From IMG/VR virus record IMGVR_UViG_2778261353_000006: a stretch of DNA of 14,509 bases; one strand, given 5' to 3'. Positions within the stretch are counted from its first letter, which is position 1. Each line of letters starts with the position of its first letter. Of this stretch, positions 2,541-12,873 are shown piece after piece. The notes beneath the pieces were generated by a model. It searched no databases. It was not told the origin of the DNA and worked only from the letters and a program-made list of their open reading frames with translations. The position numbers and the translations under genes were made by a program. The stretch is from a virus. Taxonomy: Duplodnaviria; Heunggongvirae; Uroviricota; Caudoviricetes.

Positions 2541-3092
2541 TTAAAGCTCCATCAATTTTCCAGCCAGTTCATCCCGCGGAATTACCAGCCATCCGCGCGA
2601 TTTAAGCAAAGCCAAGGCTTCTTCAACCGTCACCAGCTGACCAGGTGCATAACTTCGGATGAAGGCGGTTTTATCATCACGGATCGCCAGATGAAAATCG
2701 ATATTCATTTTGCCCATAGCACGCTCTTTCTCGTACTGGTTGAAGTAGTTATCTTCCAGTTTTTCGAACACTTCCCATGCCTGATCGGTTTCGAGCATTT
2801 TTGCGTGGCGGGCTGCACCGCGTTCTGTCCAGAGGATGAGGGAGCGGGCTTTCGGGGAAATTTTCACCTCATTTTGCGACTCGTTTAAAACTAGTCGCAA
2901 ATTTTTGAGCTCATCACCAACAGCTTTAAAGAAGTGTTTTCCCTCAATAAATCGAGATTTATTTTCATGGTGATTCTGCTGTATACGGATTGCTTCTGTT
3001 CCGTAAAGGCGGGCGAGTAACTCAGTTGTGATTACAGGAATCTGGTTATAAGTGACAGGGGAAAGGTTTTTGACAGTAACTTGAACAGTCAT
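2541..3092 (-). CDS. ORF6N/KilA-N-like DNA-binding protein (possible antirepressor)
   Basis: ATG at 3092 with GTGAGGT SD 5 nt upstream. N-terminal region ...NQIPVITTELLARLYGTEAIRIQQNHHENKSRFIEGKHFF...WTERGAARHAKMLETDQAW has the ORF6N-like pattern as I recall it. Confidence 0.75.
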   Translation of the reverse strand: MTVQVTVKNLSPVTYNQIPVITTELLARLYGTEAIRIQQNHHENKSRFIEGKHFFKAVGDELKNLRLVLNESQNEVKISPKARSLILWTERGAARHAKMLETDQAWEVFEKLEDNYFNQYEKERAMGKMNIDFHLAIRDDKTAFIRSYAPGQLVTVEEALALLKSRGWLVIPRDELAGKLMEL

Positions 3093-7592: not shown

Positions 7593-8000
7593 ATGAACGA
7601 GAAAACTTTAGGTCAACGAATTAGAGAAAGACGCAAACAGGTTGGTTTAAGTCAAAACGATTTAAGCAAAGCCGCTGGCGTATCTGGCTCATCAATTTCA
7701 CTATGGGAAAGCGACCATACAGCCCCGCGTGGGCAAAATTTGCATCGCCTGGCTGAGGTATTGCAATGTTCACCAACTTGGATACTGTTTGGTGACGAGG
7801 ATAAAACACCAGATCCACCAGTTGCACTCAACAGCGCCTTAGACTTATCGGAAGATGAGTTGGAGATGTTGCGATTGTATCGCGCACTTCCAAAATCAGA
7901 GCAGCAAGCACAAATCAGCGAACTCCGTGCCCGCGTTGAGAATTTTAATCGCCTATTCACCGAGCTACTAGAAGCTCGCAAACGTAACAAACATCAGTAA
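7593..8000 (+). CDS. dicA: DicA-like immunity repressor (XRE HTH, 135 aa)
   Basis: ATG at 7593; N-terminal HTH (LSQNDLSKAAGVSGSSISLWE); the LQCSPTWILFGDEDK motif and 135-aa length match E. coli DicA as recalled. Confidence 0.85.
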   Translation: MNEKTLGQRIRERRKQVGLSQNDLSKAAGVSGSSISLWESDHTAPRGQNLHRLAEVLQCSPTWILFGDEDKTPDPPVALNSALDLSEDELEMLRLYRALPKSEQQAQISELRARVENFNRLFTELLEARKRNKHQ

Positions 8001-8017
8001 CCCCCTTCACAAATTTT

Positions 8018-8052
8018 AAAGCCTTACATTTCAATGTATTGGCTTTATTTTG
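8018..8052 (+). terminator. weak AT-rich hairpin plus T-run after dicA
   Basis: AAAGCC-17 nt-GGCTTT followed by ATTTTG; low stability, so it may be a leaky terminator or nothing. Confidence 0.25.
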
Positions 8053-8062
8053 CATTAAATAT

Positions 8063-8113
8063 TGAGTTTTCTCATTAAAAACGCTTGACCAACATTCATG
8101 AGAAAACTAAATT
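8063..8113 (+). promoter_or_regulatory. promoter of the ydfABC-dicF-dicB operon flanked by operator half-sites
   Basis: -35 TTGACC (8085-8090), 17-nt spacer, -10 TAAATT (8108-8113); TTGAGTTTTCTCAT (8063-8076) upstream and inverted CATGAGAAAACTAA (8097-8110) within the spacer. Confidence 0.5.
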
Positions 8114-8189
8114 ACCACCCATCAAGACACCGCACGGTGTTCTCAGCAAACAGTTCCGCTACCCGGCGTTAAGGGGAAATGAGGTCAAC

Positions 8190-8345
8190 ATGGATACTAT
8201 CGATCTTGGTAACAACGAATCTCTGGTGTACGGCGTGTTTCCCAACCAGGACGGCACGTTCACCGCGATGACGTATACCAAAAGCAAAACGTTTAAAACC
8301 GAAAATGGTGCCCGTCGCTGGCTGGAAAGAAACTCAGGTGAGTGA
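8190..8345 (+). CDS. ydfA: YdfA-like small protein (51 aa)
   Basis: ATG at 8190 with GAGGT SD; MDTIDLGNNESLVYGVFPNQDGTFTAMTYTKSKTFKTENGARRWLERNSGE. The track start at 8085 is a TTG lying in the promoter -35. Confidence 0.8.
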   Translation: MDTIDLGNNESLVYGVFPNQDGTFTAMTYTKSKTFKTENGARRWLERNSGE

Positions 8346-8346
8346 T

Positions 8347-8475
8347 ATGGATTTCAACACAATCATGGAAAAGGCTTACGAAGAATACTTCGAAGGCCTT
8401 GCCGAAGGCGAAGAAGCCCTCAGCTTCAGCGAATTTAAACAGGCGCTTTCCAGTTCGGCAAAATCTAACGGCTGA
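8347..8475 (+). CDS. ydfB: YdfB-like small acidic protein (42 aa)
   Basis: ATG at 8347, AGGTGAG SD 6 nt upstream; MDFNTIMEKAYEEYFEGLAEGEEALSFSEFKQALSSSAKSNG. Not in the track (too short). Confidence 0.7.
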   Translation: MDFNTIMEKAYEEYFEGLAEGEEALSFSEFKQALSSSAKSNG

Positions 8476-8504
8476 TAAGCGAAGCAGCACCGCGAGGAAT
8501 CAGT

Positions 8505-8723
8505 ATGCAGAAACGAGAACCCGTCATCATCGCGCCAGACTATACCGATGATGAACTTTATGAGTGGATGCACCAGAAAATTAAGGCTGCGCAGGATCTG
8601 AAATGGGCCAATGAAGCCAGGGCTAAGCAGGCTGAAAATCTGTCCGCTCTGGAGCAGGATATCACCAATCTGGAAAAAGCAGCGGCATTAAGCATTGCCA
8701 GAATGATTACATACCCACGTTAA
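8505..8723 (+). CDS. ydfC: YdfC-like protein (72 aa)
   Basis: ATG at 8505 with GAGGAA SD; size and position match ydfC of Qin. Confidence 0.8.
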   Translation: MQKREPVIIAPDYTDDELYEWMHQKIKAAQDLKWANEARAKQAENLSALEQDITNLEKAAALSIARMITYPR

Positions 8724-8745
8724 TGGTTAACCAACGAGGCTAATA

Positions 8746-9153
8746 ATGGAATTTAAAGATTTACCAAAAGAAATCCAGATAATTGCTGCAACGACACTCG
8801 GTGATAGTCTGGTGAAAATTGACCCGGCATACACCAAAAAAGAAACCATCGATAATATGATTCGTAATGTGCGCAATGCTTTTTCAGGGCTATATGGTTC
8901 TGATAATCAAAAACAGGAAAACGATATTGATGAACGGGTAATTTCTGTTTGCCTGAATGGTCATGTTATTTCAGCAATCAGAACAGAAACGGCAACTGTT
9001 TTTGATTATCTCTGCATGATTCAGAGTCTTGCTGATGTTCTGTTGAAATCAAAAGATTTAGAAAACGATGCAAATTTACAGGGGCGCACAATAGCACATC
9101 CATATGCACATACTTTAGGCTCTGTGGATATCAAAGATCCCACAAATCTTTAA
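8746..9153 (+). CDS. hypothetical protein (135 aa), AT-rich cargo gene
   Basis: ATG at 8746, GAGG SD, 22 nt after the ydfC stop. Visibly lower GC than its neighbours; no family recognised. Confidence 0.7.
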   Translation: MEFKDLPKEIQIIAATTLGDSLVKIDPAYTKKETIDNMIRNVRNAFSGLYGSDNQKQENDIDERVISVCLNGHVISAIRTETATVFDYLCMIQSLADVLLKSKDLENDANLQGRTIAHPYAHTLGSVDIKDPTNL

Positions 9154-9364
9154 TGAAATAGTTAACGCAAATTGTACTTGCTCTTTCAGTTGCTTTCAGA
9201 ATACGCGTTGAAACTGCTGGCGGTAATTTAGTATTCCATTTATTAAAATCATGCCCGGGAAAGTACTCTTCGAAAATACTTTTAACTGCAGACTCGCCTA
9301 TTGAAATGCTGCTTACCATGCGATTTTGATAAAGGCATTTAGCAATAAGAGTTGATTTTAACAT
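9131..9364 (-). CDS. hypothetical protein (77 aa), convergent with the 135-aa gene
   Basis: ATG at 9364 with AAGGGTGA upstream; AT-rich; 3' end overlaps the 135-aa gene by 23 nt on the opposite strand. Confidence 0.5.
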   Translation of the reverse strand: MLKSTLIAKCLYQNRMVSSISIGESAVKSIFEEYFPGHDFNKWNTKLPPAVSTRILKATERASTICVNYFIKDLWDL

Positions 9365-9687
9365 TCACCCTTCTGAGGGTTGGTAATTAAGGAGTTCTCC
9401 ACGGGTGAGGTGGAGTGCGTGCGCCGGACACGGGTGAGCATCCGGCACTGACAGTTTACTGAAAGGATATATCCCTGAAAAGTCAGGGCATAACACGAAA
9501 GCGTACGGCGAAGGCCTTCACCTATGAGGCTTGTCGTTAAATTTAATTCGACCGTACGCTTCCGGTTGTGGCAATCCGCGAAATGGAGCGGCGGTAAGTA
9601 TGGCAGGGGTACTATTCTCCCTCCCCTGTGGAGCACCGGGTTGTCAGGTTGACCATACGCTTAAGTGACAACCCCGCTGCAACAACC

Positions 9688-9750
9688 CATGTTGATTACC
9701 TTTTGGCGGGTATCCGTTTTTTGTTTTCCCTTGTGATACCCGCCCTTTTT
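9688..9750 (+). ncRNA. dicF: DicF-like sRNA (5' end approximate) ending in an intrinsic terminator
   Basis: Perfect 10-bp stem GGCGGGTATC (9705-9714) / GATACCCGCC (9735-9744) followed by TTTTT (9746-9750). The ...UUUGGCGGGUAUC... core and the location about 185 nt upstream of dicB match DicF of Qin as recalled; the 5' part differs from K-12 DicF. Confidence 0.5.
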
Positions 9751-9756
9751 AAAGTG

Positions 9757-9914
9757 AATTTTGTGATGCGGTGAATGCGGCTCAGCGCACGCGGAACAGT
9801 TAAAAAGGCCAGTTGACTTCCGTATTGGTTCTTATGGGTGGGTTCTCTGTATCCGGCGTTAATTGTTAACTGGTTAACGTCACCTGGAGGCACCAGGCAC
9901 CGCATCACAAAATT
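9757..9914. repeat. 17-bp perfect long-range inverted repeat enclosing about 124 nt between DicF and dicB
   Basis: AATTTTGTGATGCGGTG (9757-9773) and its exact reverse complement CACCGCATCACAAAATT (9898-9914); internal GTTAAC-based palindromes; the dicB SD lies just 3' of the distal arm. Confidence 0.7.
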
Positions 9915-9933
9915 CATTGTTGAGGACGCGATA

Positions 9934-10122
9934 ATGGAAACGTTATTACCAAACGTTAATACGTCTGAAGGTTGCTTTGAAATTGGTGTCAAAATCAGTA
10001 ACCCAGTATTTACTGAAGATGCCATTAATAAGAGAAAACACGAACGGGAGCTATTAAATCAAATATGCATTGTTTCAATGCTGGCCCGTTTACGTCTGAT
10101 GCAAAAAGGATGCTGGCAGTGA
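9934..10122 (+). CDS. dicB: cell-division inhibitor DicB (62 aa)
   Basis: ATG at 9934 with GAGGA SD 7 nt upstream; METLLPNVNTSEGCFEIGVKISNPVFTEDAINKRKHERELLNQICIVSMLARLRLMQKGCWQ matches DicB as recalled. The track start at 9838 is a spurious extension. Confidence 0.85.
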   Translation: METLLPNVNTSEGCFEIGVKISNPVFTEDAINKRKHERELLNQICIVSMLARLRLMQKGCWQ

Positions 10123-10322
10123 ATACAGCATTTGCACTCGCTCTGACAGTTTATCTTAATACTGGCGAGCCTGTTAATCTGGTTATTGACATTTACGGTT
10201 CAATGAAAGAATGCACGGCTGCCGCAGCGGAACAGAAAATTCCCGGCAACTGTTATCCGGTCGATAAAGTTATTCACATGGATAATAACGAAATCCCGGC
10301 AGGACTTAAAACAGCGCCGTAA
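10119..10322 (+). CDS. ydfD: YdfD-like small protein with N-terminal hydrophobic segment
   Basis: GTG at 10119 overlaps the dicB stop (GTGA) with AAGGA 8 nt upstream; alternative ATG at 10110. NTAFALALTVYL... hydrophobic start then ...EQKIPGNCYPVDKVIHMDNNEIPAGL. Confidence 0.6.
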   Translation: MNTAFALALTVYLNTGEPVNLVIDIYGSMKECTAAAAEQKIPGNCYPVDKVIHMDNNEIPAGLKTAP

Positions 10323-10401
10323 TTAATATCCGGTTTCATTTTATATGCCAGCAATGGCAGGGATTTGTTCACCCTTAAATCTGTAATGAGGTTAAAACAA
10401 C

Positions 10402-12873
10402 ATGAGTAAAGTCTTTATTTGCGCCGCTATTCCGGACGAACAGGCAATAAAGGAAGAAGGTGCAGTCGCTGTAGCCACTGCCATTGAAGCTGGCGACGAA
10501 CGCCGCGCCCGTGCCAAATTTACCTGGCAATTCCTGGAGCAATATCCGGCTGCTCAGGACTGCGCTTATAAATTTCTTGTTTGCGAGGATAAACCCGGTA
10601 TACCCCGCCCTGCCCTCGATTCCTGGGATGCTGAATATATGCAGGAAAACCGCTGGGATGAGGAGTCAGCTTCCTTTGTCCCGGTTGAGACTGAATCAGA
10701 TCCGATGAACGTCACTTTTGACAACCTAGCCCCTGAAGTACAGAACGCTGTCATGGTTAAGTTCGACACATGTGAAAACATCACTGTTGATATGGTGATT
10801 AGCGCACAGGAATTGTTGCAGGAAGACATGGCAACATTCGACGGCCATATCGTTGAAGCGTTGATGAAAATGCCAGAAGTTAACGCTATGTATCCGGAGC
10901 TTAAGCTGCATGCCATCGGGTGGGTTAAGCATAAATGTAAGCCTGGTGCCAAATGGCCCGAAATTCAGGCAGAGATGCGCATCTGGAAAAAACGTCGCGA
11001 AGGTGAACGCAAGGAAGCCGGAAAATACACGTCTGTTGTTGATCTCGCCCGCGCCAGAGCCAATCAACAGCACACTGAAAATTCAACAGGAAAAATCAAC
11101 CCGGTCATTGCTGCCATTCATCGCGAATACAAGCAGACATGGAAAACACTGGATGACGAACTGGCCTACGCTCTCTGGCCTGGTGATGTGGATGCCGGAA
11201 ACATTGACGGCAGCATCCATCGCTGGGCAAAAAATGAAGTTATCGACAACGACCGCGAAGACTGGAAGCGTATCTCGGCATCAATGCGCAAACAGCCTGA
11301 TGCCCTTCGCTACGACCGCCAGACTATTTTTGGCCTTGTCCGTGAACGTCCGATCGACATTCACAAAGACCCTGTGGCACTGAACAAATACATTACTGAA
11401 TACCTGACTACAAAGGGCGTGTTTGAAGATGAAGGAACAAATCAGAGCGCAACTGATACTCTCTCGTCGCCAGTACCAGAAACTGATGCAGTGGAAACGG
11501 CAATTCCGGACAACGAAAAAACCGAATGCAAAGTGGAAGTCGAACCATCTGTAGAACGTGAGGGGCCGTTCTACTTCCTCTTCACCGACAAGGATGGCGA
11601 AAAATACGGTCGCGCAAACAAACTTTCTGGTCTGGATAAGGCGCTGTCTGCCGGGGCTACTGAAATCACGAAAGAAGAATATTTCGCCCGCAAAAACGGT
11701 ACATACTCAGGTTCACAACAAAATACTGGTGCATCTGACACGACCGCACAACCAGGGTCAGTAAAAGTTACCGCTGACGAAGTAAACAACATTATGCAGG
11801 CAGCCAATATCAGCCAGCCTGACGCCGATGAACTGCTTGCAGTATCACGTGGTGAATTTGTTGAAGGGATTAGCGACCCGAATGATCCGAAATGGGTGAA
11901 GGGAATTGAAACCCGCGATTCTGTGAACCAGAACCAGCAAGAAACGGAACAGAACGGCCAGAAAGCGGATCAAAACAGCCCAAATACGCAACAAAACGAG
12001 CCAGAAACGAAACAATCCGAACCAGTAGCGCAACAGGAACCGGAAAAGATCTGCACCGCCTGCGGTCAGACCGGCGGCGGCAACTGCCCTGATTGTGGCG
12101 CGATGATGGGCGACGCAACATACCAGGAAACGTTCGATGACGAGAATCAGGTCGAAGTTCAGGAAGACAATTCGGAGAAAATGGAAGGCGCTGAACATCC
12201 ACACAAGGAGAATGCTGGCAGCGCTCAGGACCACGCCAGCGATAGTGAAACTGGCGAGACGGCAGATCCCTTAATTGCGGTGAACAGTCATCACATTATC
12301 ACATCCACCAGCAGAGTGTGGACTCACCTGTCGGTCGACCTTGAAACGATGGGAACAAATCCTGATGCACCAATCAACTCTATTGGCGGTAAATTCTTTG
12401 ACCCGACAACCGGAGAGATGGGGCCGGAATTCAGCAAAGCTATCGATCTGGAAACATCTGGCGGAATCATCGACCGGAAAACAATAAAGTGGTGGGCGAA
12501 GCGATCACGCGAAGCGCAATCTGCCATTTTTACCGATGAAATCCCGTTAGATGACGCTCTACTGCAATTACGGGAATTTATCAACGAAAACTCCGGCGAA
12601 AGCTTTGTCCAGATCTGGGGAAATGGAGCCAACTTCGACAATGTGATTTTACGCCGTTCATATGAACGGCAGGGGATCCCCTGCCCGTGGCGTTACTACA
12701 ACGATCGCGATGTGCGCACAATTGTTGAACTGGGAAATTCCATTGGCTTTGATGTCAGAATGGCTATTCCATTCGAAGGTGTACCCCACAATGCACTTGA
12801 TGATGCACGTCACCAGGCAAAACAAGTTTCAGCAATCTGGCAAAAACTGATCCCAAGTCAGGCTGATTTTTAA
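10402..12873 (+). CDS. exodeoxyribonuclease VIII-like / YdfE-family protein (823 aa) with Cys4 zinc ribbon and C-terminal DEDDh (DnaQ-like) 3'-5' exonuclease domain
   Basis: ATG at 10402, GAGGT SD. C-terminal motifs VDLETMG (Exo I), GANFDNVIL (Exo II), HNALDDARHQ (Exo III). CTACGQTGGGNCPDCG zinc ribbon and Q/E/N-rich linkers in the middle. Occupies the exo/recE slot upstream of xis-int. Confidence 0.85.
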   Translation: MSKVFICAAIPDEQAIKEEGAVAVATAIEAGDERRARAKFTWQFLEQYPAAQDCAYKFLVCEDKPGIPRPALDSWDAEYMQENRWDEESASFVPVETESDPMNVTFDNLAPEVQNAVMVKFDTCENITVDMVISAQELLQEDMATFDGHIVEALMKMPEVNAMYPELKLHAIGWVKHKCKPGAKWPEIQAEMRIWKKRREGERKEAGKYTSVVDLARARANQQHTENSTGKINPVIAAIHREYKQTWKTLDDELAYALWPGDVDAGNIDGSIHRWAKNEVIDNDREDWKRISASMRKQPDALRYDRQTIFGLVRERPIDIHKDPVALNKYITEYLTTKGVFEDEGTNQSATDTLSSPVPETDAVETAIPDNEKTECKVEVEPSVEREGPFYFLFTDKDGEKYGRANKLSGLDKALSAGATEITKEEYFARKNGTYSGSQQNTGASDTTAQPGSVKVTADEVNNIMQAANISQPDADELLAVSRGEFVEGISDPNDPKWVKGIETRDSVNQNQQETEQNGQKADQNSPNTQQNEPETKQSEPVAQQEPEKICTACGQTGGGNCPDCGAMMGDATYQETFDDENQVEVQEDNSEKMEGAEHPHKENAGSAQDHASDSETGETADPLIAVNSHHIITSTSRVWTHLSVDLETMGTNPDAPINSIGGKFFDPTTGEMGPEFSKAIDLETSGGIIDRKTIKWWAKRSREAQSAIFTDEIPLDDALLQLREFINENSGESFVQIWGNGANFDNVILRRSYERQGIPCPWRYYNDRDVRTIVELGNSIGFDVRMAIPFEGVPHNALDDARHQAKQVSAIWQKLIPSQADF

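Follow-up and report, generated by a model that had tools for sequence, protein, structure and literature searches.

The 14,509-nt stretch of viral DNA analysed here (the window; IMG/VR record IMGVR_UViG_2778261353_000006) carries at 9688-9750 a hairpin element that, by its site and flanks, is a positional allele of dicF but is not DicF by the Rfam sequence-and-structure model. Comparison of this element with its relatives in other prophages indicates that the dicF locus is a mosaic cassette, in which a conserved scaffold is combined with exchangeable 5' tails and hairpin tops. The RNA of this dicF slot keeps the scaffold of DicF without either of the two DicF recognition segments, and probably regulates something else or nothing. 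As to its role, we lean, by a modest preference, towards an intrinsic terminator of the ydfABC part of the operon that would also yield an Hfq-binding sRNA of the DicF/KilS type, ~50-67 nt long and directed at a different target.

The window region is 100% identical to Escherichia coli UTAK-3 (NZ_CP157160), where it belongs to an intact-looking lambdoid prophage of the Qin type that adjoins rspB, rspA and ynfA, the site at which Qin is integrated in K-12. The gene order of the UTAK-3 prophage is RusA, hokD, an ORF6N gene, replication genes, genes for cro-like and dicA-like repressors, ydfA, ydfB, ydfC and two hypothetical genes, followed by an unannotated gap that holds the hairpin element and then by dicB, a DUF1482 gene, an exonuclease gene, xis and int. 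The 376-nt dicF-dicB region has one single match in UTAK-3, which makes it the sole dicF-type locus of the strain. The order of the genes agrees with that of K-12, where DicF is processed from the transcript of the dicB operon. The features of the window around the element are:

7593-8000, plus strand: dicA-like helix-turn-helix repressor gene of the immunity region (Pfam HTH_3, 60.9 bits; annotated as helix-turn-helix in UTAK-3; at the position of dicA in K-12)
8190-8723, plus strand: ydfA-ydfB-ydfC, the upstream part of the dicB operon, with ydfC at 8505-8723 (RefSeq annotation of the identical UTAK-3 locus)
9638-9674, plus strand: conserved upstream hairpin with a 9-bp stem, GGGTTGTCA/TGACAACCC (inverted repeat and fold), identical in K-12 Qin and located just 5' of the variable cassette
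9684-9704, plus strand: allele-specific single-stranded 5' module 'B', AACCCAUGUUGAUUACCUUUU (alignments and folds)
9705-9744, plus strand: terminator hairpin with arms at 9705-9714 and 9735-9744 and a 20-nt loop, CGUUUUUUGUUUUCCCUUGU, at 9715-9734
9745-9750, plus strand: C and U5 tract, the predicted 3' end of the RNA, equal to the tail of K-12 DicF (alignment and end of the K-12 dicF annotation)
9755-9916, plus strand: structured dicF-dicB leader, closed by a perfect 19-bp helix, 9755-9773/9898-9916 (fold -91.1 kcal/mol, z -5.6)
9934-10122, plus strand: dicB, 62 aa (Pfam PF05358 over its full length, 131.5 bits; RefSeq annotation)

The hairpin element lies 184 nt upstream of dicB, and the initial annotation of this DNA, which had placed it upstream of that gene, was correct in this respect, the ORF at 9934-10122 being DicB by its Pfam match. 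Relative to K-12 Qin, ~650 bp (8746-9364 of the window) are inserted between ydfC and the conserved leader of dicF. This insert contains two convergent, overlapping hypothetical ORFs, one on the plus strand (8746-9153, 135 aa) and one on the minus strand (9131-9364, 77 aa); a Pfam search of both gave no match, and the insert is a candidate moron or small module of two genes. Elsewhere in the window there is a hok/sok type I toxin-antitoxin locus (2301-2471 on the minus strand, and 2148-2303; Rfam sok, 101.5 bits), and the 51-aa ORF beside the sok match is annotated as hokD in the identical UTAK-3 record. An antisense immunity module in the style of P1 and P7 (3145-3342, minus strand; C4 antisense RNA 75.2 bits, isrK 72.1 bits, c4 a1/b1 target 47.4 bits) is found upstream of the ORF6N-domain gene (2541-3092) and resembles the IsrK/antirepressor arrangement of Gifsy-type prophages.

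On the plus strand of the window, AUGUUGAUUACCUUUU occupies 9689-9704 and UUUUGGCGGGUAUC occupies 9701-9714, and the RNA of 9684-9750 reads AACCCAUGUUGAUUACCUUUU-GGCGGGUAUC-CGUUUUUUGUUUUCCCUUGU-GAUACCCGCC-C-UUUUU. An inverted-repeat search returned the arms GGCGGGTATC and GATACCCGCC as a 10-nt repeat, 100% complementary and with 20 nt between its halves, so the perfect 10-bp stem and the U-run that had been noted earlier are indeed present, at 9705-9744 and 9745-9750, respectively. The folding energy of the hairpin, whose 20-nt loop is rich in U and, more broadly, in U and C, is -18.5 kcal/mol (z = -4.4), a stability not attained by any of 200 dinucleotide shuffles. The U-tract is 3' of the hairpin on the plus strand, with none after it on the minus strand. 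With its 10-bp stem (base GGCGGG/CCCGCC) and the C and U5 that follow on the transcribed strand, the element has the make-up of an intrinsic terminator; its 20-nt loop exceeds the loops typical of such terminators. A consensus terminator scan, which permits loops of 3-8 nt, reported at this place only a smaller inner stem. Module B (9684-9704) is fully unpaired when 9688-9752 is folded alone; in the fold of 9630-9752, its 5' end takes part in a weak 4-bp helix (CAAC at 9683-9686 with GUUG at 9691-9694), and 9695-9704 remain free of pairing.

Pairwise alignment puts this hairpin in the exact place of dicF in K-12-type Qin, where K-12 dicF is annotated correspondingly. Identity to K-12 Qin is 84% across the 300-nt upstream leader, reaches essentially 100% in its last ~50 nt (9634-9683), drops to 44% in the core (9684-9739) and is again 94% downstream (9740-9807). 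What the window allele and K-12 DicF have in common is the GGCGG/CCGCC base of the stem, the UUU before it and the U-tail, whereas the upper stem and the entire loop, which in K-12 DicF constitute the ftsZ-pairing region, have been replaced. Module B stands in for the K-12 segment that includes the RNase E site and the 5' seed of DicF, UUUCUGGUGACG. In MAFFT alignments, it corresponds to the K-12-type module (module A) minus ~10-12 nt around this seed, a deletion for which slippage involving UUUCUGG and UUUGG, two near-repeats, could be responsible. DicF pairs with xylR through its 5' end and with ftsZ through its 3' region (PMC5069750). In the alignments, the window allele has neither the seed nor the ACUCCG block that pairs with the Shine-Dalgarno sequence of ftsZ.

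The Rfam DicF model (RF00039, gathering threshold 48 bits) gave 76.7 bits with the K-12-type Qin control and no match in the whole window; even at E ≤ 10 it found nothing in 9600-9850 (251 bases) or 9300-10200 (901 bases). The covariance-model search that had been proposed as a check of the initial annotation was therefore negative, and the designation of the element as a DicF homolog holds for its locus, operon, flanks and terminator base and tail but not for the model that defines the family. Its 5' part does differ from that of K-12, as had been noted; the difference, however, is not limited to the seed but extends to the upper stem and the loop. Since the 5' region that pairs with xylR and the 3' region that pairs with ftsZ are both missing, the element, although its recognition sequences have changed, is not simply a DicF variant with an altered seed.

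The linker between the upstream hairpin (which ends at 9674) and the terminator (which starts at 9705) comprises 30 nt, mostly unpaired and AU-rich at the 3' end; the 40-nt linker of K-12 holds the RNase E site that makes the 5' end of DicF (PMC5069750). RNase E and RNase III together produce DicF as a 53/72-nt Hfq-binding RNA whose overexpression inhibits cell division; of the sequence signals for this, the window allele has the AU-rich linker, the U-tail and the 19-bp helix downstream. Downstream of the element, the 19-bp helix of the leader is conserved in both Qin and Rac (three-way alignment), and the paired segments 9755-9773/9898-9916 probably correspond to the site at which RNase III cuts to yield the 72-nt DicF of K-12 (PMC5069750, PMC9438474). 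The leader (9743-9966) also matches STnc100 (RF02076) with 34.0 bits (E = 1.6e-5 in the 901-base search), below the gathering score of 47, and homologous leaders elsewhere match it with 28-38 bits; in Salmonella, the dicF-dicB prophage leader may be represented by STnc100. A 14-nt insertion relative to K-12, GGCCAGTTGACTTC at 9808-9821, lies in a short variable patch between conserved leader blocks. A consensus scan revealed no sigma-70 promoter directly upstream of the element, and TTGTCGTTAAATTTAAT (9531-9547), which is homologous to the region upstream of the 5' end of KilS, an RNA of the Rac prophage, has by eye no well-spaced -35/-10 pair.

KilS (b4833) is an annotated ncRNA upstream of kilR in the Rac prophage of K-12 (NC_000913.3, 1418405-1418502, minus strand of the fetched Rac locus). 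It was found by Hfq RIL-seq and verified by northern blot, with yncL as its partner (Bar et al., 2021, PMC8175672); neither DicF nor RprA is mentioned in that paper. KilS ends with GGCGGCAUCAG-UUUUUUUCUUGAAGUUCGG-CUGAUGUCCGCCCUUUUU, after which comes the AAAGUGAAUUUUGUGAUGCGGUGAAUGCGGCU... leader as in Qin and the window, and a three-way alignment showed that the window allele shares the terminator base, the tail and the downstream leader with the kilS locus. The single-stranded 5' part of KilS, ACAUUGCUGUGUGUAGUCCU, is nearly identical to the seed of RprA (28 bits with the RprA model, sub-threshold).

Scans of IMG/VR were anchored on the conserved flanks of the locus, and the intervening sequences were tabulated. 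They resolve into the following modules:

5' module A (K-12 type): ...AUCAAU followed by UUUCUGGUGACGUUU
5' module B (window): AACCCAUGUUGAUUACCUUUU
5' module B3 and rarer forms: AACCCAUGUUGAGUAUUGACCUUU, rare
Hairpin module DicF: the K-12 hairpin
Hairpin module B1 (window): GGCGGGUAUC...GAUACCCGCC
Hairpin module B2: GGCGGCAUCAG-UUUCAUUGCUGG-CUGAUGUCCGCC
Hairpin module A2: a stem like that of B2 with another loop
Hairpin module A3: a minimal 6-bp hairpin

Module A was seen with the DicF, A2 or A3 hairpin and module B with the B1 or B2 hairpin, the downstream gene being dicB or kilR; the B1 and B2 alleles thus have their 5' module in common. In folds of the seven allele types, all have a terminal hairpin with the GGCGG/CCGCC base and a U-run, and their upper stems differ yet stay paired. 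Scores with the DicF model, whose gathering score is 48, decrease from 76.7 bits for A1 through 43.5 for A2, 39.1 for KilS and 34.7 for B3 to 34.1 for B2; the B1 allele of the window and its 3-nt-shorter form B1' gave no match. Judged from these sequences, the intermediates tie the window allele to DicF. The B2 loop, UUUCAUUGCUGG, and the KilS seed have AUUGCUG in common.

Among the 51 B1-type loci in IMG/VR, 40 of which have dicB downstream, the stem is conserved and the loop varies, with at least five variants, such as CGUUUUUUGUUUUCCCUUGU, CGUUUUGUUUUUCCCAU and CGUUUUGCUUUCCCCGU, that retain a UUUYCCC motif. The 5' tail of module B is nearly invariant, with five single- or double-base variants in these 51 loci; as the leader beside it is conserved to the same degree, this may equally reflect recent shared descent.

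The 376-nt dicF-dicB region was found in 4,632 of 5,426 complete E. coli genomes, and the canonical DicF core (at least 95% identity) in 3,953 of them (73%). The window core, counting B1 together with B1', is present in 158 of the 5,426 genomes (2.9%), including unrelated lineages such as O121:H19 (STEC), O55:H7 CB9615, STEC from goat and mutton, and porcine ETEC; B2 is found in 81-89. In a scan of GTDB genomes, the locus with its exact flanks was confined to Escherichia (E. coli, E. albertii and E. ruysiae) and Shigella, and matches to the left flank were mostly chance 17-mers. Two metagenome-assembled genomes, labelled as Veillonella parvula and as Collinsella sp., also have the two conserved flanks, most likely owing to contamination of the bins with E. 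coli prophage. The sole record with a B1-type core in the phage collection is that of Actinobacillus phage vB_Apl-pPE4 (PP818812.1:5999-6057, 93.5% identity). An Escherichia-type sequence is odd in the record of a Pasteurellaceae phage; an incorrect host assignment or contamination with E. coli prophage may account for it. Shigella flexneri CP182556 (~6526 of the locus record, minus strand) has the 5' seed of DicF with a degenerate hairpin and a broken U-tail, GGCGTATTATTTTATCCCGCTGATCCGCTCTGCCACCGTCTTCTT; the DicF model gave no match with this allele, which looks like a decayed copy.

Target pairing was evaluated with RNAcofold, a crude method, for five mRNAs (ftsZ, xylR, pykA, manX and yncL): the ddG (dimer minus monomers) of the sRNA with each K-12 translation-initiation region (TIR) was ranked against 1,160 background windows of 80 nt. 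As a control, K-12 DicF recovered ftsZ (-16.2, rank 5/1,160) and xylR (-13.8, rank 14/1,160) at about the top 1% of the background, compared with -4.2 (rank 638) and -1.3 (rank 1090) for the window allele. The values for pykA were -10.8 (rank 76/1,160) for K-12 DicF and -3.4 (rank 781) for the window allele, and those for manX were -4.6 (rank 869/1,160) and -6.3 (rank 288), respectively. Taken singly, the K-12 modules behaved in agreement with PMC5069750, the 5' tail placing xylR at rank 5 and the 3' half placing ftsZ at rank 5/1,160 (-19.8). Because cofolding cannot model loop kissing, the loop and tail of the window allele were also run as free oligonucleotides; the best value for any DicF target was that of the loop with ftsZ (-8.1, rank 141/1,160, the top 12%). 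For yncL, with a single predefined TIR window, the KilS seed reached rank 18/2,478 and the loop of the window allele rank 155/2,478 (-8.1). A seemingly strong match between the B1 loop and the leader of yncL (-15.3, rank 4/1,626) relied on nucleotides of the stem and was the best of 10 windows; given the value of the loop alone, it was rejected as evidence. Two other scoring schemes failed to separate the DicF-ftsZ pair from the background and were dropped, namely full-length RNAduplex against shuffled sRNAs (z -0.6) and a local alignment by complementarity score (rank 182/1,388), both in favour of the RNAcofold ddG.

In this crude ranking, the window allele had no target above background among the five mRNAs, and the prediction of DicF targets for it, suggested in the initial annotation, returned only background values for ftsZ, xylR and pykA. 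Because the tail AACCCAUGUUGAUUACCUUUU and the loop CGUUUUUUGUUUUCCCUUGU are unrelated to both pairing modules of DicF, we predict that the window RNA would not repress any of these three mRNAs. The complement of the 5' tail, AAAAGGUAAUCAACAUGGG, resembles a Shine-Dalgarno sequence with an AUG. Within the window, the complement of the tail or loop has no second site with up to three mismatches other than a low-complexity A-run at 2049-2065.

If the element is both a terminator and the source of an sRNA, transcription from the DicA-repressed promoter of the dicB operon would terminate at 9746-9750 or, alternatively, read through and be followed by an RNase III cut in the 9755-9773/9898-9916 helix. 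RNase E would next cut the AU-rich linker at 9684-9704 and free the ~50-67-nt RNA; like DicF and KilS, this RNA would bind Hfq by means of its U-tail and of the U-rich stretch that precedes the hairpin. The minimum role of such an element would be that of a cis-acting terminator limiting read-through into dicB. Against an sRNA with a target of its own stand the five or more loop variants of the B1 group, which would not be expected for a conserved seed, and the prediction that an RNase E cut at the K-12-equivalent position would leave almost no single-stranded 5' seed.

The main alternative is a terminator-only, DicF-null allele, that is, a leader terminator or attenuator in which the toxic DicF sequences were lost by deletion and replacement and which has no role in trans. 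We consider this a serious possibility, albeit one to which we give less than even credence. The parts conserved across alleles are those for termination only (the stem base, a paired upper stem and the U-tail), the loops vary within the B1 group, and MAFFT aligns module B as module A without the 5' seed of DicF; none of the five mRNAs was a target above background. The high toxicity of ectopic DicF (PMC5069750) provides a selective reason for such a loss, and the very short A3 allele of E. albertii contains little beyond a terminator. On the other hand, the 5' tail of module B is nearly invariant over three hairpin types and ~75 IMG/VR loci, the UUUYCCC motif of the loop has been kept despite other changes, and any terminated fragment that includes this hairpin and its U-tail would resemble an Hfq ligand. 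We place the combined terminator and sRNA above this alternative because at least two RNAs on the same scaffold, DicF and KilS, are real Hfq sRNAs; indeed, both characterised occupants of the scaffold act in trans.

It is improbable that the RNA is a functional equivalent of DicF whose U/C-rich loop still represses ftsZ, and perhaps manX, by way of the ribosome-binding region of ftsZ. The reverse complement of the loop retains, by eye, the short blocks CACAA, GG and GAAAC of the ftsZ leader, ftsZ is the best of four DicF targets for the loop, and the operon still encodes DicB, so that a division-inhibition module would be coherent. However, the rank of the loop with ftsZ amounts to background when set against that of the K-12 3' half, the full-length RNA ranks far lower still, the ACUCCG block is absent and the DicF covariance model finds no match. 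A chance hairpin or an assembly artefact can practically be dismissed: terminator-like sites are generally frequent here (7 versus 2.6 expected in 8000-10500 by the consensus scan), but the fold has z of -4.4 to -4.9 across two runs with 0/200 shuffles matching it, the hairpin sits at the exact syntenic position of dicF, and the same allele, with its stem preserved, recurs in 158 complete genomes and 51 viral contigs.

On a wider and more speculative reading, to which we give a lower probability than to the dual role of the window element, the dicF slot of Qin- and Rac-type prophages would be an exchangeable-seed sRNA cassette, in which swappable tails and hairpin tops retarget the RNA and B1 represents a third specificity. 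If so, the upstream hairpin, the GGCGG/CCGCC terminator base, the U5 tail and the RNase III helix would be the fixed scaffold, on which DicF would be the form antisense to ftsZ and KilS the form with a copy of the RprA seed. In strains with B1 alone, such as UTAK-3, DicB would on this reading be the prophage's sole means of inhibiting division, and the RNA would be put to a different host function.

In the searchable literature, DicF is treated as a single conserved sRNA; the DicF copies analysed there are >99% identical, and 'four copies' are reported in EHEC (PMC5069750, PMC7873438). We found there no description of divergent dicF alleles or of the relationship between DicF and KilS, although an earlier description is possible. 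In ~3% of complete E. coli genomes, the RNA of the dicF locus is invisible to the Rfam model and has neither of the DicF pairing modules; conclusions on the effects of DicF on division, metabolism and virulence are therefore not transferable to those strains. The comparison also brings DicF and KilS together on one scaffold whose recognition modules have been swapped, and this case makes the evolution of new sRNA specificities in prophages tractable to study.

DicF of K-12 (b1574, RF00039) is the closest known counterpart in position, occupying the same slot between ydfC and dicB at the same chromosomal integration site; its operon is controlled by DicA/DicC, and the window element belongs to an equivalent operon. 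Both have the upstream hairpin, the UUUGGCGG...CCGCCCUUUUU terminator base with its tail, identical in the two as CCGCCCUUUUUAAAG, and the downstream long-range helix and leader. In contrast to DicF, the window element has no UUUCUGGUGACG seed, and the ftsZ-antisense loop and 3' arm give way to a perfect 10-bp stem with a U/C-rich loop of 20 nt.

KilS and the window element lie in homologous slots upstream of a division-inhibitor gene, kilR in the former case and dicB in the latter, and have in common the GGCGG...CCGCCCUUUUU terminator base, the AAAGUGAAUUUUGUGAUGCGGUGAAUGCGGCU leader and a U-rich hairpin loop; KilS, like the window allele, falls below the DicF gathering score. They differ in the upper stem, which is CAUCAG/CUGAUG in KilS and GUAUC/GAUAC in the window, and in the 5' part, which in KilS is longer and carries the RprA-like seed AUUGCUGUGUGUAGUC that pairs with yncL, a seed that the alignments show to be absent from the window allele. 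The predicted biogenesis, with early Rho-independent termination inside an operon and 5' processing, is the same as that of SroC, CpxQ and SdhX (PMC9438474), and SdhX resembles the window locus in that its scaffold is conserved and the remainder is variable (PMC9438474). SroC, CpxQ and SdhX, however, are sRNAs of the core genome with conserved seeds, whereas in the dicF slot the seed-bearing parts have been swapped between prophages.
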